The position numbers were made by a program, and so were the translations under genes. 64,000 nucleotides of DNA from NCBI GenBank assembly GCA_041674705.1, contig JBAYVF010000006.1:23241-87240 (forward strand). Direction: 5' to 3'. Of the stretch, positions 3,615 to 52,540 are shown in pieces; positions within the stretch are counted from its first letter, which is position 1, and each line of letters opens with the position of its first letter. The DNA is from Candidatus Omnitrophota bacterium. Its GTDB lineage: Bacteria; Omnitrophota; Omnitrophia; Omnitrophales; Aquincolibacteriaceae. The notes under the pieces are model-generated. The model searched no databases. It was not told the origin of the DNA and worked only from the letters and a program-made list of their open reading frames with translations.

Positions 3615-4973
3615 ATGCCGCTGGTGATCGAAACCTTCCGCTCTTCAAAAACTCCCTGGGAGGTTTTTCAAGCAGTTCACGCAAGCTCCAAAACTTGCTT
3701 CTTTCTGGACAGCCCTCACCACGCCCCGCCCGATCAAGTCTATTCCTATATAGGCATGAATCCGGCCGTTGAGATCCGTCTGGAAGAAAAGGCCCTCTCT
3801 ATAGAAGGCGAACTGAACGGAAAATATCCCGCCCGCGAATTTTTCCCTGTTCTCAAAAAAGCCTTCAGGAAATATCAAACCCGTGGCCCGAACGCTTATC
3901 CGTTCTTTACAGGAGGATTCGTCGGCTATTTGGGATACGAAGCCGCAGATCTTTGCGACAAAATAAAATTCCGGGCAAAGCCGGGTCCGGACGTCCCCCG
4001 AGGCTATTGGGGTCTTTTCCGGGACGTGATCGTTTATGATCATCAAAAGTGCGTTTATTATCTCGCGGCCCATGATCGGGGAGCGGAAAAATTAAAAATT
4101 TATTTTGAAAAAGCCGCTCCGAACACAAAACAGCGTTTTAAGATGAATCGGTTGACGGCGGAAATGATGAAAGGGCAGTTCAAGGGGATGGTTAAAAAAG
4201 CCAAGGCATATATCGTGGCCGGGGATATTTATCAGGCGAATCTTTCGCAGCGTTTTTCATTCGGATACGAAGGCTCTTCTCTGGAACTTTACGGCAAGCT
4301 TCGCGCGATCAATCCGTCGCCTTTTTCCTGTTTTTTGAAAGCAGGAGATCTTGAGATCGTGAGTTCATCCCCCGAGCGGCTGGTCCGGAAGAAGGGCCGC
4401 CTGTGTGAGACGCGGCCGATCGCGGGAACGTGTCCCGCCCGTGGCGCCTCGAGGCGGGTCGCTGAGTGGCGAAAAAAACTTCTTCAAAATGAAAAAGAAA
4501 AATCCGAACATCTGATGCTCGTGGATCTTGAGCGGAACGATCTCGGCCGCGTCTGCGATTACCGCTCCGTGAAGGTTCGGGAGTTTATGACGCTTGAAAA
4601 ATATTCCCACGTGGTGCACATCGTTTCCAGGATCACGGGGAAGCTTAAAAAAAACAAGGACGCGCTCGACGTGATCCGGGCCATGTTTCCTGGCGGGACG
4701 ATCACGGGGTGCCCCAAGATCCGTTGCATGCAGATCATCGATGAGCTTGAGCCCGTGCAACGCGGCATCTATACCGGATCTTTGGGCTATATCGATTTTC
4801 ATGGGGATATGGATCTGAACATCGTGATACGGACCCTTCTTTTGAAAAACGGAAAAGGGCATCTTCAGGTGGGCGCGGGCATTGTGTACGATTCGGATCC
4901 GGAAAAGGAATATGAAGAGACACTTCATAAAGCAGCGGCGTTAGTGAAGGCATTAAAAGAAGCATCCATATGA
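3615..4973 (+). CDS. pabB: aminodeoxychorismate/anthranilate synthase component I (chorismate-binding enzyme)
   Basis: C-terminal chorismate-binding blocks: SSPERLV, EHLMLVDLERNDLGRV, FPGGTITGCPKIRCMQIIDELE, RGIYTGSLGY. The pabB call over trpE rests on the adjacent class-IV aminotransferase and the folate context. Confidence 0.7.
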   Translation: MPLVIETFRSSKTPWEVFQAVHASSKTCFFLDSPHHAPPDQVYSYIGMNPAVEIRLEEKALSIEGELNGKYPAREFFPVLKKAFRKYQTRGPNAYPFFTGGFVGYLGYEAADLCDKIKFRAKPGPDVPRGYWGLFRDVIVYDHQKCVYYLAAHDRGAEKLKIYFEKAAPNTKQRFKMNRLTAEMMKGQFKGMVKKAKAYIVAGDIYQANLSQRFSFGYEGSSLELYGKLRAINPSPFSCFLKAGDLEIVSSSPERLVRKKGRLCETRPIAGTCPARGASRRVAEWRKKLLQNEKEKSEHLMLVDLERNDLGRVCDYRSVKVREFMTLEKYSHVVHIVSRITGKLKKNKDALDVIRAMFPGGTITGCPKIRCMQIIDELEPVQRGIYTGSLGYIDFHGDMDLNIVIRTLLLKNGKGHLQVGAGIVYDSDPEKEYEETLHKAAALVKALKEASI

Positions 4974-5045
4974 CACCAAGACACAAGGACACAAAGTCAC
5001 CAAGTGAAAAACGGGTGACTTGGCAACCTGGTGGCAGGTGACTTG
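4974..5045. repeat. word-repeat palindromic element, GTCACCAAG family
   Basis: caccaagacacaaggacacaaagtcaccaagtg...ggtgacttggcaacctggtggcaggtgacttg. Core stem is aagtcacc/ggtgactt. It shares the 15-mer aggacacaaagtcac with the element at 54308-54376, in inverted orientation. Confidence 0.7.
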
Positions 5046-5048
5046 ACG

Positions 5049-5906
5049 ATGAACTACAAAATCTATCAAAATGGAAAAGAGGTTAGCGGGGAACTTTCGT
5101 TCGATCTCATGCGAACGGAAGCGGCCGGCATTTTTGAAAGCATGCGCGCCTACGATGGCCGGATCTTTCACGAGGAAGAGCATCTCTTTCGGCTTTTAGA
5201 ATCTGCAAAGACCGTGGGCTACCAACCCTTCCCTGACGCGGCGAAACTCCGTCTGGAAATAAGAATGGCGCTCAAGGCCTCCGGGCAGAAAGAGGGTTTT
5301 GTCCGTTTGACCCTATGGGAAGGAAAGACTTTTGTGGTCCTGGGAAGCCGGACGCATGCCAAAGAGCTCTACGAAAAGGGCGTGGTGCTTAAAACCGCTT
5401 CCTTTCCTCGTGGCGGACCGAACACCTTTCCCTGGCAAGCTAAGACCTCAGCGTATCAACAGGCCATTTTAGCCAGCACGGAGCCTCATCCCGACAACAT
5501 CTATGAGTGGGTATTCCTGGATCAAGGGGGTTTTCTCACCGAAACACGCACCGGAAATTTTTTTATCGTCCAATCCCTCAAAAACGGAAAAGCGACGCTG
5601 TTGACACCGCCTGAGCACGGAATCTTGAATGGAGTGACCCGTAGGTTTGTGATAAAATGCGCCCTCGAACTCGGGATACCGGTCCGAGAAGTTCCGATGA
5701 CCCGGCATGAATTTTTCAATGCGGATGAAGCTTTTCTTTGCAACACTTCCTGGGAGGTCCTGCCGGTCCGTGAACTCGATGGCCGCGCGATCGGCACGGG
5801 AAAACCCGGTCCCGTCACTTTAAAACTGCACCGTTTCTTTAAAAGGAGGGTTCAACAAGATGTCACGTCACACCGTTCGCCGCGCACTCATAAGCGTCTC
5901 CGATAA
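5049..5906 (+). CDS. pabC: class IV aminotransferase, probable aminodeoxychorismate lyase
   Basis: Fold-type IV pattern: EEHLFRL..S, GILNGVTR, with Glu/Arg blocks. ATG 5049 is preferred because the track start 5031 lies inside the upstream hairpin. The 3' end overlaps purH by 47 nt. Confidence 0.6.
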   Translation: MNYKIYQNGKEVSGELSFDLMRTEAAGIFESMRAYDGRIFHEEEHLFRLLESAKTVGYQPFPDAAKLRLEIRMALKASGQKEGFVRLTLWEGKTFVVLGSRTHAKELYEKGVVLKTASFPRGGPNTFPWQAKTSAYQQAILASTEPHPDNIYEWVFLDQGGFLTETRTGNFFIVQSLKNGKATLLTPPEHGILNGVTRRFVIKCALELGIPVREVPMTRHEFFNADEAFLCNTSWEVLPVRELDGRAIGTGKPGPVTLKLHRFFKRRVQQDVTSHRSPRTHKRLR

Positions 5907-42135: not shown

Positions 42136-42510
42136 TTAGATCCACCGAGCGAGCATGACGCCCAGCCGGAAAACCAGAAAGCCCAGGATCACGCTCAGGG
42201 CGATATTCATAAAGGCATAAAGGCTTTCGCCGTCTTTGGTGAGATTCGCGGTTTCAAGGATAAAACTCGAAAAAGTGGTGAAGGCGCCGCAAAAACCGAT
42301 CATGAGGAATACGCGAGCGGCAGGTCCCAACAGGAATTTTTCTTCGGCGAGGACAGCGAGAAAGCCGATCGCGAAGCAACCGATAAGATTGACTACCAGG
42401 GTCCCAAAGGGGAATGTGACTCCGAAGACGCGGTGGACGGCTCCCGAAAGGAAGTAGCGGGCAAAGGTTCCGAGAACACCGCCAGCCGCCAAACCGATCC
42501 ACTTCGCCAT
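42136..42510 (-). CDS. crcB: fluoride efflux channel CrcB/FluC
   Basis: MAKWIGLAAGGVLGTFARYFL....FPFGTLVVNLIGCFAIG...GFCGAFTTFSSF. ATG 42510 is preferred over the track start. Confidence 0.9.
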   Translation of the reverse strand: MAKWIGLAAGGVLGTFARYFLSGAVHRVFGVTFPFGTLVVNLIGCFAIGFLAVLAEEKFLLGPAARVFLMIGFCGAFTTFSSFILETANLTKDGESLYAFMNIALSVILGFLVFRLGVMLARWI

Positions 42511-42526
42511 TTTAGAGATCTCCGTA

Positions 42527-43129
42527 TTATTTTTTTCCGCCAAAAGGCTTGGCGGATCCGCCTCCGGCGGACTTACCGACGGTGAAGGCCTGGCCGAGGA
42601 ACTTGCCGGTCGCATAATAAGCGCTTGTGCCCGGATCGAACATGAAAGCTTTCATTTTTTCCGGATCGGGAAAGCCTTTGGAGTTGAGCGCCGACTCTTC
42701 CACCTTGATATCCTTGATCTCGCCGATGAATTGCGTGTGAATGCCGAGCTTGTGCGTTTCTTTCAGCGTGCATTCCAGGACGAAAGGAAATTCCTTGATG
42801 TAGGGTGCGTCGACGAGATCGCTTTTGACGGGCGTCAACCCCGTAGCCTTAAATTTATCTTCGGTCTTCCCGGAAACGATCCCGAAATAATCCGCTTCTT
42901 TCATATGTTTTTCGGAAGGAATATTTACGGTGAAGGCTTTTTTCGCCAGAATGTTCTCATAGGTCTTGCGATGATCGCGTATCGAGACCGTCACGCAAGG
43001 CGGTTCGGAGCAGGCGATGCCGCCCCAGGCCACGTTCATGGCGTTGGGAGCGCCTTTCGCGTCATAAGAACAGACGATCAGGACAGGAGTCGGAAAGAGA
43101 AGCGTTTTGGTACCGAGCGATTTTTTCAT
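42527..43129 (-). CDS. flavin reductase-like FMN-binding domain protein
   Basis: LLFPTPVLIVCSYDAKGAPNAMNVAWGG split-barrel pattern. ATG 43129 is preferred, because the track extension MKGIGT is read from the repeat element. Confidence 0.75.
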   Translation of the reverse strand: MKKSLGTKTLLFPTPVLIVCSYDAKGAPNAMNVAWGGIACSEPPCVTVSIRDHRKTYENILAKKAFTVNIPSEKHMKEADYFGIVSGKTEDKFKATGLTPVKSDLVDAPYIKEFPFVLECTLKETHKLGIHTQFIGEIKDIKVEESALNSKGFPDPEKMKAFMFDPGTSAYYATGKFLGQAFTVGKSAGGGSAKPFGGKK

Positions 43130-43231: not shown

Positions 43232-43978
43232 TTAACGGCCTTCGATATTGAGCACGTGCGTTTTCTTTTTCAGGAAACGGAAAACAAGATAGATCACAAG
43301 GGAGGTCCCAAAAAAGATCCACCAAAAAGGCGCGATCTTATGGTCGGGTTTCGTAAAAAGGTCCGCGGCGATCCCGAGCACGGTGAGGGCAGAGATCATG
43401 CCAAATTGTGTCGAATGCTCCCGGCGCAACACGGTCTTCCACGCGTACGGGAGTTCCGGTTTTTGAAACCCCGAGAATTTTGGAATAAAGACGGGCGTTT
43501 TCAAGGACCATTCCACGAATGTCTGCCCAAATTTCTGGCGCAGGAATTCTTCTTCCGTGAAAATGATGCGCTCGTAGAAGATCCAGAAAATAGCAATTCC
43601 TGCGAGCGTGAACCACCAAACCTGGATAAAGAGTAGAAGTCCAAGGCAAATGAGGAAATTTCCAAGATAAAGAGGGTTGCGGACCACCGAATACAAACCC
43701 TTGGTGTTCAGACTTTCCGCGACCTGGGTTTGCGTGTTGCGTCCCGAAGTTCCTCTTGGAACATAACCGGCCACGAGGCAGCGCACGATGAACCCCGAAA
43801 GGGAAATGAGGATGCAGATCGCTTTCCAGAGGCTGCCGGAAAAACCGCTGAAGAATGGATGAGAATATTGGGGATCCAGGAGCGCTGCGACGACCAAGGG
43901 GCCTACCAGGAGAGGAAGGTAACTTCGGTGACGGAAGAGGAACGCGCCTTGTTTTTCATAAGTTTCTTTGAGAGCCAT
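43232..43978 (-). CDS. isoprenylcysteine carboxyl methyltransferase (ICMT/PEMT-like) family membrane protein
   Basis: Multi-TM. LNTKGLYSVVRNPLYLGNFLI...ERIIFTEEEFL block. Confidence 0.65.
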   Translation of the reverse strand: MALKETYEKQGAFLFRHRSYLPLLVGPLVVAALLDPQYSHPFFSGFSGSLWKAICILISLSGFIVRCLVAGYVPRGTSGRNTQTQVAESLNTKGLYSVVRNPLYLGNFLICLGLLLFIQVWWFTLAGIAIFWIFYERIIFTEEEFLRQKFGQTFVEWSLKTPVFIPKFSGFQKPELPYAWKTVLRREHSTQFGMISALTVLGIAADLFTKPDHKIAPFWWIFFGTSLVIYLVFRFLKKKTHVLNIEGR

Positions 43979-44739: not shown

Positions 44740-46365
44740 CTATTTGATTGAGAGGATCTTATTTTCTTGAGTCGTGATGGTATCAAGTTTTCCCCATAAT
44801 TGGAAGAATAGTTCGGGCCTGAAACGGAAAAGCGGTTCAAGGCCTTGGGAGGTTGAGGCGTAAAAGATTTTTTCGTTTATTAATTTCTGTAAAACTTCAA
44901 CGCCCGTGGCCGATCGGCGATCCCGCTTCGAGGCGATCGCCAGCGCCTCGGAAAGGGGGATTGTTTTTGAGGCAAACGAGATGCCTTTCAGGAAGTTCAG
45001 GATACGGGTCGTGATAAGAAGCGTGTAAAGATCCTCACGCTTGAAATCCCGGGTTTCGATCGCCATGGCCGTGAGGCGCGCTGTGAAGACATCGGTTTCG
45101 GAAGGGGCATCAAAATGCCTGGCGATAGGCGAATGCGGAATAAGATAAAAAGGGGAAGCGCCCAGAAGCATAGGGAGCTTGGCGTTAAAAAGGAGTGTCT
45201 TGATCATGGAGGCAAGCGTGTCGCCCGGGAGTCCCAGGATCTGATAAGCAACGACCTTAAAGCCGAGCGCTGCTGCGTTTTTTAAAACTTCGCGGTATTT
45301 CGCGAGCGGGTTGGGCCTCTGGACTGTCTTAAGTAAAGCCGTGTTTGTGCTTACAAGCGAAAGGTTCAGATGTGTGAATCCCGCTTGTCGCATAAGTTTG
45401 AGGATGCTGCGGTCGAGCGTCCAGTAGCAGACTCCGTTCATGGCGAGGAGCTGGATATCTTTTAGGGGGAATTCCCGGATAAGTTGTTTACACAGCCCGG
45501 TCATTTCCTTCCGGTCGAACGTAAGGTTGTCATCTTCGAAATCAAAGACACGATAACCTTCGTTGTAACGCTGCTTGATCTCGGTGAGAATGCTTTTGGC
45601 GGAGCGCCTGCGGCATTTATGGCCGAACGTCTTGTGGACCGAACAAAAAGCGCAGCGGTAAGGGCATCCGCGTGACGTGATGATGAAACAAAGGGGCTTC
45701 TTCTCAAAAAGATAATGATTCTGAGGAAGGTCAGAAAAATCGGGGAATGGAAGCGCTTCGATCGGGAAGTTCTCTTTTCGCGGATTTAAAATCAATCGCC
45801 CGCGCTTTTTATATCCAAGATTCGGGATCTTTGCGAAATTTTTGCCACTCTTTAAAACCTTCAAAAATTCCACGAACGGCTTTTCGCCTTCGCCCTGAAT
45901 TACGAAGTCGATCGCCGGATGCGCGAGCATGGTTTCCGGCATGGCGGACACGTGAGCACCTCCGATCAGAATGGGAACATCCCAACGCTTTTTGATCGCT
46001 TCCGCGCAGCGGAAAACCTCGCGATGATAAGGGGCAAAAAGAGCTGCGATGCCGACAAGATCCGGCTTTTCTTTCGCAACTTCTTCAGCGATCGTCTCAA
46101 AATCCGCGCCGAAGTGATAATAGTGATGGAAAGTCGAGAAAGGGCTTTTGTCATCTTTGGAATAATAATCTTTTAAATAGGCGAGCTCTTTCGGGAGCGG
46201 GATCGTTTTCCGGCCCCAACCGTGGTGGTAATCTCTGATCGTGACCCGGACTCCTGGGATATGTTTTTGCGCCGCGGCTTTGAGATAGGCCAGGCCGATC
46301 GGTTGGAGACGGATGTCCGTATTGTAGAAATCCTCGACCGGAGGTTGTAAAAGCAGGACCTTCAT
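44740..46365 (-). CDS. B12-binding domain-containing radical SAM protein
   Basis: N-terminal MKVLLLQPP...GLAYL...DLVGI..GG.H (cobalamin-binding-like), then SRGCPYRCAFCS. ATG 46365 gives an ATGA overlap with the upstream gene. The track start is 46395. Confidence 0.8.
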   Translation of the reverse strand: MKVLLLQPPVEDFYNTDIRLQPIGLAYLKAAAQKHIPGVRVTIRDYHHGWGRKTIPLPKELAYLKDYYSKDDKSPFSTFHHYYHFGADFETIAEEVAKEKPDLVGIAALFAPYHREVFRCAEAIKKRWDVPILIGGAHVSAMPETMLAHPAIDFVIQGEGEKPFVEFLKVLKSGKNFAKIPNLGYKKRGRLILNPRKENFPIEALPFPDFSDLPQNHYLFEKKPLCFIITSRGCPYRCAFCSVHKTFGHKCRRRSAKSILTEIKQRYNEGYRVFDFEDDNLTFDRKEMTGLCKQLIREFPLKDIQLLAMNGVCYWTLDRSILKLMRQAGFTHLNLSLVSTNTALLKTVQRPNPLAKYREVLKNAAALGFKVVAYQILGLPGDTLASMIKTLLFNAKLPMLLGASPFYLIPHSPIARHFDAPSETDVFTARLTAMAIETRDFKREDLYTLLITTRILNFLKGISFASKTIPLSEALAIASKRDRRSATGVEVLQKLINEKIFYASTSQGLEPLFRFRPELFFQLWGKLDTITTQENKILSIK

Positions 46366-47096
46366 CGCTTCTTCGGGGAGACCCTGAGCAGGCAATCTTC
46401 CAGATCTTCTGGAAGCGGAGATTCAAGCGTGAGCAATTTGCCGCTTGTCGGATGCGGGAAGATCAGCCGCCAGGCGTGAAGAAACATCCGGTGAAGACCG
46501 AGCGCCGCCTTCAGTTCCTTGTTGAGCGTAAAATTTCCGTAGAGCCGGTCGCCGGCCACCGGATGACCGTGATAGGCCGACTGCACGCGGATCTGGTGCG
46601 TTTTTCCGGTCAAAAGTTCGATCTCCAGAAGCGATAGATTGAACTTCGGAAAATATTCTTTCATTTTATAATTCAAAAATGCGTTGGGCCGGCCGAGCGT
46701 GCTGATCGCTGAACGGATCCCTCCCTCGGACCGTCGTTCCATCATGTTATCGCGCCATATCCCGTGCGCCGGCATCGGCTTTCTTGAAACAAGAGCAAGA
46801 TAATTTTTTTTGACGGCTCGTTCCTCGAATGCTTTTCGGCAAGCCGCGACGCTTTTCTTGTTCTTGGCCGCCAGAAGCACTCCGGAGGTGTCTTGATCGA
46901 GGCGATGGATGAGCCAGATCGGGCCTTGAGGTGTTTGAAATCGACGATCCCCAAGATCATAAGGACCTTCGAAAGCGGAGGAGAGGCTTTTGGATCCAGG
47001 ATTTGGATGTGAGAGGACCCCTTCCGGCTTGTCAATGACGAGCAGATCGGCGTCCTCAAAGAGGATCGGGCATTGCGTAAAAAAGGAGTTTGCCAT
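46362..47096 (-). CDS. RluA family pseudouridine synthase
   Basis: HRLDQDTSGVLLAAK catalytic block and THQIRVQ. The start is ATG 47096 or GTG 47129. Confidence 0.8.
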   Translation of the reverse strand: MANSFFTQCPILFEDADLLVIDKPEGVLSHPNPGSKSLSSAFEGPYDLGDRRFQTPQGPIWLIHRLDQDTSGVLLAAKNKKSVAACRKAFEERAVKKNYLALVSRKPMPAHGIWRDNMMERRSEGGIRSAISTLGRPNAFLNYKMKEYFPKFNLSLLEIELLTGKTHQIRVQSAYHGHPVAGDRLYGNFTLNKELKAALGLHRMFLHAWRLIFPHPTSGKLLTLESPLPEDLEDCLLRVSPKKR

Positions 47097-47121
47097 TAGG
47101 AAAAGGACCTTTTTAAATGCG

Positions 47122-47189
47122 CCCGCCACAAAGCGCTGGCGGGTCCGTCCGACAGCGCGAGCGGACGGGTCCGCCGCGCTGTTTGGCGG
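47122..47189 (-). other. three tandem short GC hairpins, each with GCGC in the loop
   Basis: On the minus strand: ccgcc-aaacagcgc-ggcgg, ccgtccg-ctcgcgctgt-cggacgg, cccgcc-agcgctttgt-ggcggg. They lie between the small ORF stop and the rluA-family start. There is no U-tract. Confidence 0.4.
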
Positions 47190-47190
47190 A

Positions 47191-47274
47191 TTAGCTGCAG
47201 CAGCAACCGCAGCGGGATTTTTTCGCTGTTTTCTTAGTTTTCTTTTTTGCGGCTTTTTTTGCTTTTTTGGCCAT
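47191..47274 (-). CDS. unannotated small ORF, 27 aa, polybasic with C-terminal Cys cluster (MAKKAKKAAKKKTKKTAKKSRCGCCCS)
   Basis: Below the ORF-track length cut-off. ATG is preceded by AAAGGAG plus a 5-nt spacer. It lies 26 nt downstream of the GDT1-like stop on the same strand. Confidence 0.55.
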   Translation of the reverse strand: MAKKAKKAAKKKTKKTAKKSRCGCCCS

Positions 47275-47300
47275 GACGACTCCTTTGGGTTGAATTGCGG

Positions 47301-47573
47301 TTAAATTTTATTGAAGAACATCAACATCCCGATGACCACGAACGCTGTGGCGCCGCCATAACGTATGAACTCCGGTTTGACGTATTTTGCCAGGAGAGTC
47401 CCGAGAATGACCGAGATCAGCGTGACAAGCGCATAGCCCGCGATCGATCCCAGGAATACGGACAAAGGTTTCCCGGTCTTGGAGGCCATGGTGATCCCCA
47501 CGAGTTGCGTCTTATCGGCAAGTTCCGCAAAGAAGATAGCGCTTAAGGTTGCTAAAAAAATTTTCCAATCCAT
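47301..47573 (-). CDS. UPF0016 (GDT1/TMEM165-like) single-repeat cation transporter subunit
   Basis: 90 aa, 3 TM, with the E-x-G-D-K-T-type motif as FAELADKTQL. Confidence 0.7.
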   Translation of the reverse strand: MDWKIFLATLSAIFFAELADKTQLVGITMASKTGKPLSVFLGSIAGYALVTLISVILGTLLAKYVKPEFIRYGGATAFVVIGMLMFFNKI

Positions 47574-47643
47574 AAAAGTCTCCTTGAAAGGTGATTGACA
47601 AAAGGAATTGTACCATAAAGTACTCGTCGCGCACTGAGCGGAC

Positions 47644-50199
47644 TTAATATCCGTATTTCTTTACGTACCAGGACTTGATCTTTTGCGTCAGGGTCAGATA
47701 GGCGAGGACGATCACAAGGACCGAGAAACCGTAACCCCAGGTCGGCGGAACAAAGCCGAAGAATTTTCCCCAAGGGGAAAGCGTGACGGCAAAAGCGGTT
47801 CCGACGATACAAAGCGACATTTGGACCAGGAACCGGCTAGGGCGGCTTTCGAGGAACGGTATCTTGGCGGTTCGGATGATATAAATAATAAAGGTTTGAG
47901 TGCAGAGCGACTCCAGGAACCAGCCGGTATGGAAAAATTCCTGCGAGGCATGGAAAACAAAAAGCAAGATCCCGAAAGTCAAAAAATCAAAGAGGGAACT
48001 GATCGGGCCAAAGATGAGCATGAACCGGCGGATCGCGGCGATATCCCAACCTTTGGGAGTTTTCAGATATTCATCATCCACCTTATCGGTCGGGATGGCG
48101 ATCTGGGAGACGTCGTAAAGAAAATTATTGAACAAGATCTGGATCGGAAGCATCGGAAGAAAGGGAAGGAAAAGGCTCGCGCCGGTCATGCTGATCATAT
48201 TCCCGAAATTAGAACTCGAACCCATCTTGATGTATTTCATGATGTTCCCGAAGGTTCTGCGACCTTCCAACACGCCGTCCTCAAGGACCAGGAGGCTTTT
48301 TTCAAGCAGGATAATGTCCGCGGATTCTTTGGCGATATCGACGGCGTTATTGACAGAAATGCCGACGTCCGAGGTTTTAAGGGCCGGCGCGTCGTTGATG
48401 CCGTCTCCCAAGTATCCGACGATCTGCCCGTTCTCATGAAGCGCATGAATAACACGTTCCTTCTGAAGCGGGGAGAGGCGTGCGAAGACGGTGGTTTTTT
48501 TGACCAGTTCCCGGAGCGTGATATCGCTGGCGGCCTCCAGCGTATCACCCGTGACGATCTCGTGGACATCCAACCCGACATGGCTGCAGATCTTTTTGGT
48601 GACTAGTTCGTTGTCGCCAGTCAGCACTTTGAATTCGATGCCAAGATTTTTCAGGCGATGGATCGTTTCCTTGGCGCTGGGTTTCGGCGGGTCAAGGAAC
48701 GCGAGGTAGCCGATCAGGACGAGGTTCTTTTCATCGTCCTTGCTGTAAACGCTTTTTTTCTCCGGCATGTTTTTATAGGCCACGGCCAGGACCCGGAAGC
48801 CGTCGGCGCTCAAAGAGTCGTATTCTTCCTTAAGATCGGAAAGGATCAAATTTTCCATTTCCAGGATCTCGCCGTCGAGTTCGTAATGACTGCAGCGTTT
48901 AAAGATCTCTTCGGGGGCGCCTTTGGAAATAAGCGTTTGTTTTCCCTCGGCTTCAACAATGACCGACATGATCCTGCGCGAAAAATCGAACGGGATCTCA
49001 TCCTCTTTTTTATATTGTTCGGTCAGCACCAGTTCGTGCTTCAGGATCGCGCGGTCGAGCAAGTTCTTGAGGCCGGTCTGATAGAAACTGTTGATGAAGG
49101 CGTATTTGAGGACCTCTTCGTTTTCAGCCCGGACCACGTCGCAGTGACGTTCGAGCACGACATCATCCAGCGTGAGGGTGCCGGTCTTGTCCGTACAGAT
49201 CACGTTCATGGCGCCCAGGTTCTGGATCGAATTGAGACGCTTTACGATCACCTTTTTTTTGGACATAGCGATCGCTCCTTTGGAGAGATTGATCGTCACG
49301 AGCATCGGCAGCATTTCTGGCGTCAAGCCGACGGCGACGGCAAGAGAAAAAAGCAAAGCCGTTTTCCAATCGCCTTTGGTGAACAGATTGATCACAAAGA
49401 TCGCCGCGACCATGACCATCATGACTTTGATCATAAGCCAAACGAAACGATTCACCCCTTTGTCGAAACTGGTTTGCGTGCGGATATTCGCCAAGCGCCT
49501 CGAAACTTCTCCAAATTGAGTGTCGATGCCGGTTTTAATCACCAGGCCCAGAGCTGTGCCGCTCACCACGCTGGATCCCATGAACGCGATATTGGTCAGG
49601 CTGGTGACGGAAAGGCCTTGGGTGTTGATCGGGGCCGCGATTTTTTCAATGGGGAAGGATTCTCCTGTCAGGGAGGACTGATTGATGAACAGGTCTTTAC
49701 AGGAAAGGATGCGGAGGTCGGCAGGGATCATGTCGCCTGCGTAAAGGTCCACGATATCGCCCGGGACGATCTCTCGCATTTTGATCTCGGTTGGTTTTCC
49801 ATCCCGGTTCACGGTGGCGGTGGCGCGTACGAGTTCGCTCAGCTTTTCGGCCTCTTTATTGGACTTGTATTCCTGGAAAAAGGACAAAAAAACGCTGAGG
49901 AAGATCATGAGCAGGACCAGCAACGCCTGGATATCTTCTCCGAAGCAGAGAGAAAATGTGGCGATGACCAAAAGGATGATAACGAGCGGATCCGTAAATT
50001 TCTGGAGAAGCTGCCACAACGCGGTCCGCTTCTTTTTTTTGGCCGGTTCGTTGTAACCGTGTTTTTCAATGCGTAAAGCGGCTTCCTCTTCGGAGAGGCC
50101 TCCCCACGAGGTCATGAATTCTTTGAGGAGCTCCTCGGCGGTTGCCGCGCTAAAAAAAGAAACCGGCTTTTGATTTTTGGGATTCTGAGGATTTGGCAT
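47644..50199 (-). CDS. mgtA: magnesium-translocating P-type ATPase
   Basis: ICTDKTGTLT, TGDN, GDGINDAPALK. 851 aa with MgtA-like N-terminus and TM layout. Confidence 0.85.
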   Translation of the reverse strand: MPNPQNPKNQKPVSFFSAATAEELLKEFMTSWGGLSEEEAALRIEKHGYNEPAKKKKRTALWQLLQKFTDPLVIILLVIATFSLCFGEDIQALLVLLMIFLSVFLSFFQEYKSNKEAEKLSELVRATATVNRDGKPTEIKMREIVPGDIVDLYAGDMIPADLRILSCKDLFINQSSLTGESFPIEKIAAPINTQGLSVTSLTNIAFMGSSVVSGTALGLVIKTGIDTQFGEVSRRLANIRTQTSFDKGVNRFVWLMIKVMMVMVAAIFVINLFTKGDWKTALLFSLAVAVGLTPEMLPMLVTINLSKGAIAMSKKKVIVKRLNSIQNLGAMNVICTDKTGTLTLDDVVLERHCDVVRAENEEVLKYAFINSFYQTGLKNLLDRAILKHELVLTEQYKKEDEIPFDFSRRIMSVIVEAEGKQTLISKGAPEEIFKRCSHYELDGEILEMENLILSDLKEEYDSLSADGFRVLAVAYKNMPEKKSVYSKDDEKNLVLIGYLAFLDPPKPSAKETIHRLKNLGIEFKVLTGDNELVTKKICSHVGLDVHEIVTGDTLEAASDITLRELVKKTTVFARLSPLQKERVIHALHENGQIVGYLGDGINDAPALKTSDVGISVNNAVDIAKESADIILLEKSLLVLEDGVLEGRRTFGNIMKYIKMGSSSNFGNMISMTGASLFLPFLPMLPIQILFNNFLYDVSQIAIPTDKVDDEYLKTPKGWDIAAIRRFMLIFGPISSLFDFLTFGILLFVFHASQEFFHTGWFLESLCTQTFIIYIIRTAKIPFLESRPSRFLVQMSLCIVGTAFAVTLSPWGKFFGFVPPTWGYGFSVLVIVLAYLTLTQKIKSWYVKKYGY

Positions 50200-50207
50200 G
50201 AGGAAGT

Positions 50208-51089
50208 CTAACTCATTAAAATATTAATCACAATCCCCGCGGTAAGGCTTACGAGAACGAGGAGGCCCATGATGAAAGCGGTTTCTTTGCGGTCCTTGTT
50301 CTCTTGAAAAAGGACCAGTATCCCCAGGCCGCCGCTCGCTGAAAGGCCCGCAATGGCCGAACCGAAGGTGATGGCGCCTTTCAAATAAACCTCGGTGATC
50401 GCGACGGAGGCAGCGCAATTCGGGATAAGCCCGACCAGAGTCGCGATCAAGGGCTGGAAAAAAGTTCCCGAGAAAAAGACGCGCTCCAGGCCCGCTTCTC
50501 CAAATTTCGCGACCACAAAGCCGATCGCCAGAGAAACCGCAAAAATAAAAAACAGAACCTTCAGGGTGTGCTTAAGCGGAAAAAGGAAAAAAGTTTTCCA
50601 GCGGGGGATCCCCTGGCCGTGTGTGTGGCAATCGCAGGATCGGTACCCTCCCTCGGGAACAATGGGGGCGTGCGGAACATGCGGCTCCCCAGAGGAATTT
50701 CTTTTAAAGATAAGATCGACCGCGTATCCGGCGATCGTCGCAAGAACCACCTTTGTGAGTAAAAGACTAAGAACCAAGGGGGCTGCGTTGTGTTGGGCGA
50801 GAATCACCGGGATCGCTTCATCCGAAGTTGAAATAAAAACGGCGAGCAGCGTTCCTCGCGAAATACACCGGCGGGTATAAAGCGTGGCGGCGACCACCGA
50901 GAAACCGCATTGAGGTATACAGCCTAAAAGCGCACCCAAAAAAGGCGCCACGCCCATTTTGTGGCTGATCTTTTCTCCGAGGAAAGATTCCGACTTGTTC
51001 TCAAGAAACTCGAGCGCGATATAAATGCCCAAAAGAAGCGGCAGCATCCCCATCGTGTCTTTGAGTGTTTCCATCAAGATTTGATTCAT
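50208..51089 (-). CDS. polytopic membrane permease, possibly a metal-ion exporter family
   Basis: About 10 TM helices. GCIPQCGFS and TSDEAIPV motifs, two homologous halves. The family assignment is from memory only. Confidence 0.35.
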   Translation of the reverse strand: MNQILMETLKDTMGMLPLLLGIYIALEFLENKSESFLGEKISHKMGVAPFLGALLGCIPQCGFSVVAATLYTRRCISRGTLLAVFISTSDEAIPVILAQHNAAPLVLSLLLTKVVLATIAGYAVDLIFKRNSSGEPHVPHAPIVPEGGYRSCDCHTHGQGIPRWKTFFLFPLKHTLKVLFFIFAVSLAIGFVVAKFGEAGLERVFFSGTFFQPLIATLVGLIPNCAASVAITEVYLKGAITFGSAIAGLSASGGLGILVLFQENKDRKETAFIMGLLVLVSLTAGIVINILMS

Positions 51090-51144
51090 GAATGAGGATA
51101 GTACTTTGGAATATTGGCAAAATCAACAATCCAGAATTATTTGA

Positions 51145-51222
51145 CTGGATGGAGGAGGGCGGACGGAGAATGGTGTTTGGTTTTGGCGTCGCCCGCCATC
51201 CACCATCCGTCTCCCGTTTTTT
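51145..51222. repeat. palindromic element, GGATGG family, followed by T6
   Basis: ggatggaggagggcgg (51147-51162) pairs with ccgccatccaccatcc (51193-51208), 14/16. The loop contains gtttggtttt, as in the intragenic copy at 28565-28650. Confidence 0.7.
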
Positions 51223-51266
51223 AGTCCCGCTTGCGGTTGCCAGTTGATTCTGCCAGAATAGCTCTG

Positions 51267-51352
51267 TTATCCCAACTTTAAATTTCTTTGCATAAAGGAT
51301 AGTTGAGATTGCCCCAATTTCTACTTCGTAAAAATTGAAAGGTATTGGGACT
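51267..51352 (+). repeat. CCCAAT-family 86-bp element, copy abutting the 51353 start codon
   Basis: Inverted partner of 43130-43215. It ends ...gaaaggtattgggact directly before the ATG. Confidence 0.9.
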
Positions 51353-51550
51353 ATGAAAAATTATGTCTGGAAGTATCTTCTTCCCGGGATTGCCCTCATA
51401 GCATGCGCGTTCTGGGTCGGGACGCTGCCCAACATGGTTTTTTCTTTCCTCGGTTTTCTCTCGTTCTTTTTGGCCGGCGTAGCCCTTATCATAGAAGGAC
51501 GGAAACAATGCTTTTCCTGTAAAGGGAAAGGCACGGAGAACGGCGAGTGA
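51353..51550 (+). CDS. small membrane protein (65 aa, 2 TM, C-terminal CFSC)
   Basis: ATG 51353 is preferred, because the track extension MKGIGT is read from the repeat. No recognisable family. Confidence 0.45.
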   Translation: MKNYVWKYLLPGIALIACAFWVGTLPNMVFSFLGFLSFFLAGVALIIEGRKQCFSCKGKGTENGE

Positions 51551-51587
51551 TGAACATCGAACGCCTTGGTTTCGAGGGATTCCCGGT

Positions 51588-52121
51588 ATGAACCATCCAT
51601 CGGGTCAATCTTCGCCGAGGGCTTCCGGCGTTCGAGGGCTCACGATAATTTTACTGGGTCTTTTTTTTGCGGCGGTAGTAATCTTTATTTTCCTTTCAAG
51701 ATCACCGTTGCCGGAAAGGGCCCTTTCAAGAGCGGGACAAGCCGCGGCTGAAAAGCCAATGGGCTCCACACTTTTATCAGAGGCAAGCGCCCCCGAGATT
51801 CTTCAGGAAAAGGATGTCGCTGAAAAATCAGTTTATACTTTAAGTGAAGTGGCCCTTGAGCCGGAGCTTCTTGAAATTCCGGGCGCAGGAGAAGCGGACC
51901 AAAAAAAGTTGGGCTATAATCTCGGCATTGAAGATGTCACTGGCCGGGGGAATGTACGTGCCTCGAATTTAAAGATAGGCGTTGATTATAAGGTATCTAA
52001 AAATTCCTCTGTGGGGATAGAGGCGAGACAGGGAGTCCACGATACGCAAGATGCCGCAGCCTGGGGAGCGTCGGTGGATGACGAGACTGCGGCCCGGGCT
52101 AAATACAAACTATCGTTCTGA
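51588..52121 (+). CDS. hypothetical protein with N-terminal TM/signal anchor and OMP-like C-terminal YKLSF
   Basis: GLTIILLGLFFAAVVIFIFL hydrophobic segment. The terminal aromatic residue resembles a beta-barrel sorting signal. Confidence 0.4.
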   Translation: MNHPSGQSSPRASGVRGLTIILLGLFFAAVVIFIFLSRSPLPERALSRAGQAAAEKPMGSTLLSEASAPEILQEKDVAEKSVYTLSEVALEPELLEIPGAGEADQKKLGYNLGIEDVTGRGNVRASNLKIGVDYKVSKNSSVGIEARQGVHDTQDAAAWGASVDDETAARAKYKLSF

Positions 52122-52147
52122 TCCGATCTTTTTAAACGGAGATTTTA

Positions 52148-52540
52148 ATGACCTACTTTAAAGTTGTGAGCATCGTGTTGGGAGGTTGGATGGTCGCCGG
52201 AGGCTTGTGGGCTGTTTTGGGATCGGAAAGCCTGAAGCAACTTGTTGTGAGGCTTTATCCTGAAGCGCGGCCCCGTTGGATGAAGCCCGCCGGGGCGCTG
52301 GTGCTTGCGCTTGTGTTATGGACCTGGGCGGAGTTCGTGAAGACTGTGAATATGGAGAATTTTGTGGTGACGCTTGTGGTGAGCCTTGGGCTCGTCAAGA
52401 TGGTGCCGCTCGTCTTCCTTTATAAGAAGTCCCGGGAGTTCCTGATGGCGCTTACGGCGGAGCCACTCGCGTTCCGTGTCGTGGTCCTCAGCTCCGCTGC
52501 CGTGGGTCTGGCGCTTTTGATGATGGGGCTATTCTTTTAA
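52148..52540 (+). CDS. hypothetical integral membrane protein (130 aa, 4 TM)
   Basis: ORF with a GGAG-like SD (aaacggag). Hydrophobic throughout. Confidence 0.45.
   Translation: MTYFKVVSIVLGGWMVAGGLWAVLGSESLKQLVVRLYPEARPRWMKPAGALVLALVLWTWAEFVKTVNMENFVVTLVVSLGLVKMVPLVFLYKKSREFLMALTAEPLAFRVVVLSSAAVGLALLMMGLFF

Follow-up and report, generated by a model that had tools for sequence, protein, structure and literature searches.

The bacterial metallothioneins SmtA/BmtA and MymT carry many cysteines spread through the whole chain in CxC and CxxC motifs, which form a metal-thiolate cluster, and ArsD, a folded thioredoxin-like protein of ~120 amino acids with the residues Cys12-Cys13-Cys18, works together with the ArsA ATPase. 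In eukaryotes, the tails of K-Ras4B and Rab belong to folded GTPases that are recognised by dedicated prenyltransferases and an escort protein. Among the small proteins tied to transporters, the 42 amino acid MntS of E. coli inhibits the Mn exporter MntP, to which it binds, and associates with itself when Mn is present (bioRxiv 10.1101/2023.06.02.543501; PMC4361602). Here, we analyzed a stretch of 64,000 nucleotides from a Candidatus Omnitrophota bacterium (GenBank assembly GCA_041674705.1, contig JBAYVF010000006.1, positions 23,241 to 87,240 of the forward strand; hereafter, the window), which harbors on its minus strand an open reading frame (ORF) of 27 codons encoding a lysine-rich peptide that ends in a cluster of cysteines.

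A preliminary description of this locus, made from the letters alone, had proposed an unannotated small ORF within a metal-transporter cluster, encoding a polybasic and Cys-terminated peptide, and our analysis strongly upholds this core claim. Translation of positions 47191-47274 of the minus strand reproduced the coordinates, the strand and the opening of the ORF, in which the sequence AAAGGAG (47286-47280) is followed by tcgtc and the ATG (47274-47272). The ORF spans 84 nt including the stop codon, and its ATG lies 26 nt after the end (47301) of a gene encoding a GDT1-like protein (PF01169), a spacing that had been given correctly. The predicted peptide of 27 amino acids has Cys at four of its last six residues, as described, and contains 11 Lys and one Arg instead of the 13 Lys first counted. 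An antisense ORF of 104 amino acids (46990-47304, plus strand) was rejected as a shadow of the small ORF, because the wobble changes of the sense frame would be non-synonymous in the antisense frame; its downstream part covers the non-conserved hairpin sequence that follows the small ORF. A scan for sigma-70 promoters gave no match near the small ORF, and the sole flag of the terminator scan near it was an antisense artefact within the ORF.

To place the small ORF among its relatives, one genome per species was scanned with an alignment of GDT1, which yielded 80 loci. Wherever GDT1 shares 75% or more identity with the window protein (L003-L021), the K-rich, Cys-tailed small ORF is present 3' of it, and the genome scan also found the ORF in L026 and L032. 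A further 57 more distant Omnitrophota loci lack the small ORF and share none of the remaining neighbours. Even with looser criteria, no small ORF rich in Lys or Cys was detected close to GDT1 in these 57 loci, so GDT1 does not generally have the peptide as a partner. When the family was turned into a degenerate DNA pattern, this pattern recovered 19 of the 23 known genome loci and gave 37 matches in JGI metagenomes, including 27 clear members that stop right after the Cys run, and no matches in viral contigs. In all, the family comprises 23 loci from genomes and 27 from metagenomes; once duplicates are removed, 41 loci remain, with 39 different ORF sequences that encode 38 different peptides. 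The GDT1 protein of the window is also present on metagenome contigs, and its homologues are nearly all labelled Candidatus Omnitrophota. This distribution indicates that the small ORF is a clade-specific gene of one group of uncultivated Candidatus Omnitrophota and not a phylum-wide one.

Conservation in relatives had been named beforehand as a test of the small ORF, and the frame, the Shine-Dalgarno site and purifying selection are indeed kept across the loci. An AGGAG-type Shine-Dalgarno sequence lies 5-9 nt before the ATG in nearly all orthologues (23 genome and 27 metagenome loci), with a weaker AAGGAA in its place in L106 and L107, and length changes between orthologues are whole codons throughout. 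Mean pairwise differences at codon positions 1, 2 and 3 are 0.19, 0.09 and 0.41, respectively, and the ratio of non-synonymous to synonymous differences per site (pN/pS) is 0.17 with pS = 0.70, i.e., synonymous sites are near saturation while the peptide is held. In addition, A-runs of at least nine nucleotides are found in none of the 39 distinct ORFs, compared with 11.8 of 39 expected from shuffling the same codons (zero was reached in 0 of 2000 shuffles), and this avoidance of poly(A) runs points to selection for smooth, in-frame translation. The recurrence of the ORF, its Shine-Dalgarno site, its kept frame and the purifying selection acting on it place it far beyond chance, indicating that it is a real, conserved microprotein gene whose translated product would have 24-31 amino acids, the length range of the 38 distinct peptides.

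The codons themselves have a particular arrangement. Within the Lys-Lys pairs of the 39 distinct ORFs, the second codon is AAA in 146 cases and AAG in 22, and the first codon is mixed (AAG in 92 and AAA in 76). Together with the GCN codons, this bias holds the A-runs to at most eight nucleotides.

All 38 peptides lack Asp and Glu and have a Lys content of 37-52%, and 35 of them begin with MAKK. Large hydrophobic residues number three in total over the whole set, and no signal peptide, membrane segment or hydrophobic segment was found in any peptide, suggesting that the product is cytoplasmic. The Lys residues are phased at ~90-100 degrees per residue, leaving a narrow Ala/Thr/Ser stripe on one face, and their helical moment at 100 degrees is 0.39, compared with 0.17 +/- 0.014 for shuffled sequences. 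This body leads into an invariant KKS, then an optional S, R or G, and finally a tail of 2-5 Cys (mostly 3-4) arranged as CCC, CCCC or CGCCC, with at most one residue after the last Cys. Cys is limited to the last 3-7 residues, and the remainder of the chain consists of Lys, Ala, Thr and Ser. The predicted architecture is therefore a polylysine amphipathic helix followed by the invariant KKS and a vicinal-Cys C-terminus, a newly defined arrangement that is under purifying selection.

No described family accounts for this peptide. Searches of NCBIfam and Pfam with four family members as queries, and a search of the PDB, gave no matches at E ≤ 10. A concatenated two-variant query against 5.8 billion protein clusters retrieved only P0121 and P0122, both of which are over-extended (mis-started) gene calls, and a profile search of 1.84 billion representatives returned the same two proteins only, with no fusion or Rosetta-stone protein. 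Literature searches for a polybasic, Cys-tailed bacterial peptide, or for small proteins of Omnitrophota, found no relevant description. At 84 nt, the gene probably falls under the length limits of common gene callers, and it is an example of the small genes that are missed by automated annotation.

The small ORF follows a row of transporter genes (Table 1). The predicted layout is that of an operon in which the permease gene of the ArsP_2 family comes first, followed by a variable slot occupied by MgtA, Nramp or CDF transporters, GDT1, and finally the small ORF. In the window, ArsP_2 is separated by 8 nt from MgtA, which is followed after 70 nt by GDT1 and after a further 26 nt by the small ORF, so the order of GDT1 after mgtA had been described correctly. 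The window ArsP_2 carries the Cys motifs GCIPQCG, SCDCHTH and IPNCAAS (of the CxxC, CxC and C types). GDT1 is found directly 5' of the small ORF in 38 of the 41 loci, and the spacer between them measures 17-35 nt in about 20 distinct loci. Such a short spacer leaves no space for a promoter or a terminator, which makes co-transcription the simplest reading; the small ORF is thus most likely co-transcribed with GDT1, as the last cistron of the operon.

Table 1. Predicted features around the small ORF, in window coordinates.
Feature	Position	Strand	Basis and remarks
LmtA-like methyltransferase	43232..43978	-	TIGR04571, full-length alignment, 233 bits, below the cutoff of 325; ICMT, 46 bits
RluA-family pseudouridine synthase	46362..47096	-	PF00849; ENA call of 244 aa; ATG at 47096, alternative GTG at 47129
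GC-rich composite stem-loop, no U-tract	47122..47190	-	Directly 3' of the stop codon; inverted repeats I1 and I3-I5, and fold
Microprotein gene	47191..47274	-	27 codons plus stop, MAKKAKKAAKKKTKKTAKKSRCGCCCS; translation and orthologues
Shine-Dalgarno sequence AAAGGAG	47280..47286	-	5 nt 5' of the ATG; read directly
Single-repeat GDT1/UPF0016 cation transporter gene	47301..47573	-	90 aa; PF01169, E = 3.7e-21
MgtA-type Mg2+ P-type ATPase	47644..50199	-	Variable cargo; TIGR01524, 1020 bits, cutoff 611
ArsP_2 / 'arsenic efflux protein' permease	50208..51089	-	First gene of the operon; PF11449; NF037962, 241 bits, cutoff 100

Comparison of the loci showed which parts of this cluster are constant. 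ArsP_2 lies 0.4-4.2 kb 5' of the small ORF wherever the upstream sequence suffices, with the exception of L119, and MgtA is present in 7 of the 41 loci only (the window and six others). Elsewhere, the slot between ArsP_2 and GDT1 contains Nramp together with a soluble MgtE_N-CBS protein, a CDF transporter, Amt together with PII, or nothing. The MgtE_N-CBS protein of the slot has no membrane domain, and a PRC-barrel domain was detected in the L118 copy only. In L090, L116 and L118, GDT1 has been lost and the small ORF still lies beside transporter genes. The constant theme of the small ORF's context across loci is therefore cation and metal(loid) transport, including Cys-lined permeases.

Some further observations concern the transporter genes. 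The variable slot extends over positions 47644-50199 in the window, 1904-4764 in L004, 971-4923 in L019 and 1717-4672 in L090. The window GDT1 is a single repeat of 90 amino acids, and as no second half adjoins it, the protein presumably acts as a homodimer. In both L004 and L019, the gene directly 5' of GDT1 encodes the soluble MgtE_N-CBS protein, an adjacency that hints at a two-part transporter with a cytosolic sensor. Long spacers of 70-210 nt between GDT1 and the small ORF occur in L004, L005, L007, L009, L011, L012, L021, L095 and L101, and these are filled by GC-rich inverted repeats (e.g., cgcgcaacg...cgttgcgcg), so that the ORF is flanked by stem-loops on either side in some loci; the repeats have the look of inserted elements that form hairpins.

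A second Cys-rich small ORF is encoded 3' of the first in 15 loci, where it reads M..KKKGFFAKLFEKLDKKLE[DE]KAKK[ST]GC[GC]C...SCCG. This ORF encodes 48-81 amino acids, with a predicted amphipathic N-terminal helix (KKKGFFAKLFEKLDKKLEEKAKK) followed by GCGC or CCC and, further on, SCCG, and examples are found in L018 (5375-5521), L007 (~5510-5670) and L090 (~4960-5106). Its stop codon overlaps the ATG of a gene encoding an ArsP_1 permease (PF03773) that carries a TPFCSCSS motif. The AKK[ST]GCGC segment of the second ORF resembles the AKKSRCGCCC end of the K-rich peptide, and the corresponding proteins (P0123-P0128) are annotated as hypothetical only. The window does not contain this pair of second ORF and ArsP_1.

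The stop codon of the small ORF is followed by a strong secondary structure. The preliminary description had reported three tandem GC hairpins at this position; the GC-rich inverted repeats are present, but they overlap and are partly nested, forming one composite structure. The 211-nt region folds with a minimum free energy of -71.9 kcal/mol (z = -2.4), hairpins of such strength are rare elsewhere in the window, and the hairpin sequence was not found as a repeated element within it. In 31 of 39 distinct loci, 10 bp or more of unbroken helix can form shortly 3' of the stop codon; the hairpin sequences are unrelated between loci, and a T-rich tail is present in only four of the 31. Most likely, the part of the transcript with the small ORF ends at this hairpin or is stabilised by it at its 3' end.

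Downstream, the RluA-family gene lies 3' of the small ORF in every locus with enough flanking sequence, either directly or after the second ORF and its permease gene. In the window, it is followed on the same strand by genes encoding a B12-binding radical S-adenosylmethionine (SAM) enzyme, a DedA/VTT protein, a methyltransferase of the PEMT/ICMT superfamily, a flavin reductase and CrcB. The RluA, B12-radical SAM and DedA neighbours named earlier were thus all recovered with Pfam and NCBIfam models. The B12-radical SAM enzyme is most similar to P-methyltransferase, hopanoid and lipid enzymes, in each case below cutoff; together with the DedA and LmtA-like genes, it suggests a cluster for the modification of envelope lipids. 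The gene for the CrcB fluoride channel (42136-42615, minus strand) adds another ion-export function to the neighbourhood, and a DUF190 gene (L001 11588-11920) then closes the row of same-strand genes.

Regarding function, the explanation that we favour, albeit tentatively and with less than even confidence, is that of a peptide that docks on polyanions and carries a thiolate cluster binding soft metals or metalloids near the transporters, as suggested by its composition and gene neighbourhood. The Lys-rich body would fold as a cationic, amphipathic helix against a polyanion, most likely the acidic cytoplasmic side of the membrane next to the transporters, and the invariant KKS would act as a hinge presenting the 2-5 adjacent C-terminal thiolates, whose pKa should be lowered by the neighbouring Lys. 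The ion bound by this cluster would be a thiophilic one (e.g., Zn(II), Cd(II), Cu(I) or As(III)/Sb(III)), which the peptide could buffer, pass on to the Cys-lined ArsP_2 and, in loci that have it, ArsP_1, or sense on behalf of these permeases. Of the earlier suggestions, that of a thiolate metal-binding or chaperone peptide serving the adjacent transporters fits best, in view of the membership of the ORF in the operon, the constancy of ArsP_2 and GDT1 as upstream neighbours and, in related loci, the coupling of the second Cys-rich ORF to the thiol-lined ArsP_1 permease, although metal binding itself is putative.

Several points weigh against this explanation. The predicted function is read from composition and gene neighbourhood, and neither a metalloregulator gene nor a riboswitch turned up at the locus. 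At the gathering threshold, Rfam gave no riboswitch or leader, and at E ≤ 1 the only match within positions 46000-52500 was a sub-threshold one to the DUF2815 RNA (51296-51355). The genes encoding RluA, the B12-radical SAM enzyme, DedA and the LmtA-like protein also travel with the ORF in a neighbourhood that is syntenic clade-wide, so the association with transporters is partly phylogenetic inertia and not independent evidence. Furthermore, the cations transported by GDT1, MgtA and Nramp are hard ones (Mn, Ca, Mg), for which thiolates have little affinity, and more distant Omnitrophota retain GDT1 without the peptide. Finally, nucleic acids would be an equally suitable target for a polycation that carries a Cys cluster.

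Mammalian protamines combine polybasic runs with Cys cross-links, and it is conceivable, if unlikely, that the peptide is a comparable nucleic-acid binder of the protamine or histone H1 type, in which an AKK-repeat helix coats DNA or RNA and the terminal Cys cluster joins peptides to one another through disulfides or shared metal ions. This would mean that the peptide compacts the nucleoid or associates with ribosomes in ultra-small cells, and that its position beside transporter genes is incidental. Its Lys/Ala-rich composition, the absence of acidic residues and the phased Lys are consistent with such a role and resemble the Lys-rich repeats of the chlamydial DNA-binding protein Hc2 (PMC2848022); the strong Shine-Dalgarno site and the 3' stem-loop would suit an abundant product, and a gene for an rRNA/tRNA pseudouridine synthase is always downstream. 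The small cell size also agrees, as Omnitrophota are mostly ultra-small cells (PMC10066038). However, the ORF lies in a transporter operon and stays there through several rearrangements, and the translational coupling of the second Cys-rich ORF to a permease gene ties the Cys motif to transport. The confinement of the gene to one clade, when it is not general in Omnitrophota, and the lack of a match to any Pfam or NCBIfam model, those of Hc1 and Hc2 included, likewise argue against nucleic-acid binding.

The presence of the small ORF in an operon with transporter genes could also reflect a small regulatory subunit that switches GDT1, ArsP_2 or ArsP_1, with the Cys cluster as a metal or redox sensor, by analogy with the action of MntS on MntP; GDT1/UPF0016 and MntP are both Mn-linked small-repeat transporters. 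We regard this as rather doubtful, since none of the transporters is adjacent in all loci (3 loci lack GDT1, 26 lack ArsP_1 and 34 lack MgtA) and since the sequence of the peptide does not resemble that of MntS. The peptide also has no hydrophobic segment for binding within the membrane, which most known transporter-regulating small proteins do have.

A polybasic run followed by a terminal Cys is the formal shape of the Rab-type and K-Ras-type membrane-targeting signals, and the preliminary description had raised the possibility of a membrane-targeting peptide with a lipidated or methylated C-terminal Cys, recalling eukaryotic CAAX tails. In such an anchor, one or more of the terminal Cys would carry an S-acyl or prenyl group, perhaps together with a methyl ester, on the pattern of the polybasic-CaaX and Rab CC/CXC tails. 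The tails of the peptides, which read CC, CCX or CXCCCX after the polybasic run, and the methyltransferase gene of the PEMT/ICMT superfamily 3 kb downstream are compatible with this proposal, but its main support is lost. The methyltransferase, described earlier as ICMT-like, aligns end to end with LmtA, a lipid A Kdo2 1-phosphate O-methyltransferase, at 233 bits as against 46 bits for ICMT, and its gene is absent from the neighbourhood of L021 and L026, both of which keep the small ORF. A CaaX box is present in 0 of 38 peptides, and the CC, CCX and CXC-like endings form a motif too short to be diagnostic. No protein prenyl- or acyltransferase was found among the neighbouring genes examined, and to our knowledge no bacterial system lipidates its own cytoplasmic C-terminal Cys tails. 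Lipid anchoring of this peptide is thus very unlikely.

More broadly, we consider it improbable that the Cys tail acts either as a site of covalent S-lipidation or as a Cys or metal cross-linker in genome compaction of the protamine kind. If either were true, the peptide would be the first of its kind, with a mechanism that has not been described in bacteria, and an S-lipidated cytoplasmic peptide of a bacterium would be a prokaryotic counterpart of the polybasic-plus-Cys membrane anchors.

The two remaining proposals are the least credible. A precursor of a ribosomally synthesized and post-translationally modified peptide (RiPP), with a Cys-rich core modified by the B12-dependent radical SAM enzyme, would agree with a short peptide that is Cys-rich at its C-terminus and encoded 0.8 kb upstream of the enzyme's gene, and with the weak, sub-threshold similarity of this enzyme to RiPP methyltransferases (one among many other matches), but we find it highly improbable, as the housekeeping RluA gene and a strong hairpin intervene, at least three loci with the ORF (L015, L017 and L021) do not have the enzyme's gene nearby, neither a protease nor an exporter of the kind usual in RiPP clusters is present, SCIFF and other precursor models gave no match, and a Lys-only leader is atypical for RiPPs. 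Just as improbable is a leader peptide, in which slowed translation at Lys and Cys codons would control the downstream genes through alternative hairpins: the ORF is short, rich in two amino acids and, in the window, directly followed by overlapping inverted repeats that allow alternative pairings, but the amino acid sequence is conserved beyond its codon content, as the pN/pS ratio indicates, the Lys codons are arranged against long A-runs prone to stalling or slippage, most loci have one simple perfect hairpin of variable sequence with no alternative fold and mostly no U-tract, the downstream gene varies (RluA, or the second ORF and its permease), and no Rfam leader or riboswitch was found.

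If the peptide does hand off or sense metal(loid)s, as we tentatively favour, it would represent a new accessory component of the poorly understood ArsP_1, ArsP_2 and GDT1 transporters. It is short enough for chemical synthesis, so its binding to metal(loid)s, membranes and nucleic acids is directly testable without culturing the organism.

Compared with known systems, the Omnitrophota peptide resembles MntS in that it is shorter than 50 amino acids, faces the cytoplasm, is genetically tied to cation transport, long went unannotated and has a proposed metal-dependent behaviour. MntS differs in being neither polybasic nor Cys-tailed, and the Omnitrophota peptide appears to be co-transcribed with several different transporters, its partner being only putative. 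Like the small proteins of the MntS, MgtS, MgtR and KdpF type, it has fewer than 50 amino acids and its gene always lies within a transporter cluster. With the bacterial metallothioneins SmtA/BmtA and MymT it would share clustered Cys as a site for soft metals, putative in this case, although its 2-5 Cys stand at the extreme C-terminus and no hidden Markov model (HMM) matches it. The principle of an As(III) site built from vicinal Cys, and the association of the gene with metal(loid) efflux, recall ArsD, but the peptide has 27 amino acids and no HMM match, and no ArsA-like gene is present among the neighbours examined.

The polycationic proteins offer a second comparison. Hc1 and Hc2 of Chlamydia are Lys/Ala-rich, low-complexity polycations from the same part of the tree, related to the Planctomycetes-Verrucomicrobia-Chlamydiae group, but they are much longer (165-237 amino acids for Hc2; PMC2848022) and have no Cys tail, and no family model matches the peptide. 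Protamines share a low-complexity polycation (Arg-rich in their case) and Cys for cross-linking. The polybasic-CaaX tail of K-Ras4B and the CC/CXC tails of Rab have the polybasic stretch and the C-terminal Cys with at most one residue after it; however, no such prenyltransferases or escort protein are encoded among the Omnitrophota neighbours examined, where the nearby methyltransferase is LmtA-like. Taken together, the peptide appears most like a thiolate metal(loid) accessory peptide or a transporter-linked small protein while being a member of no known family, and its predicted architecture is previously undescribed among bacterial microproteins that are associated with transporters or related to metals.

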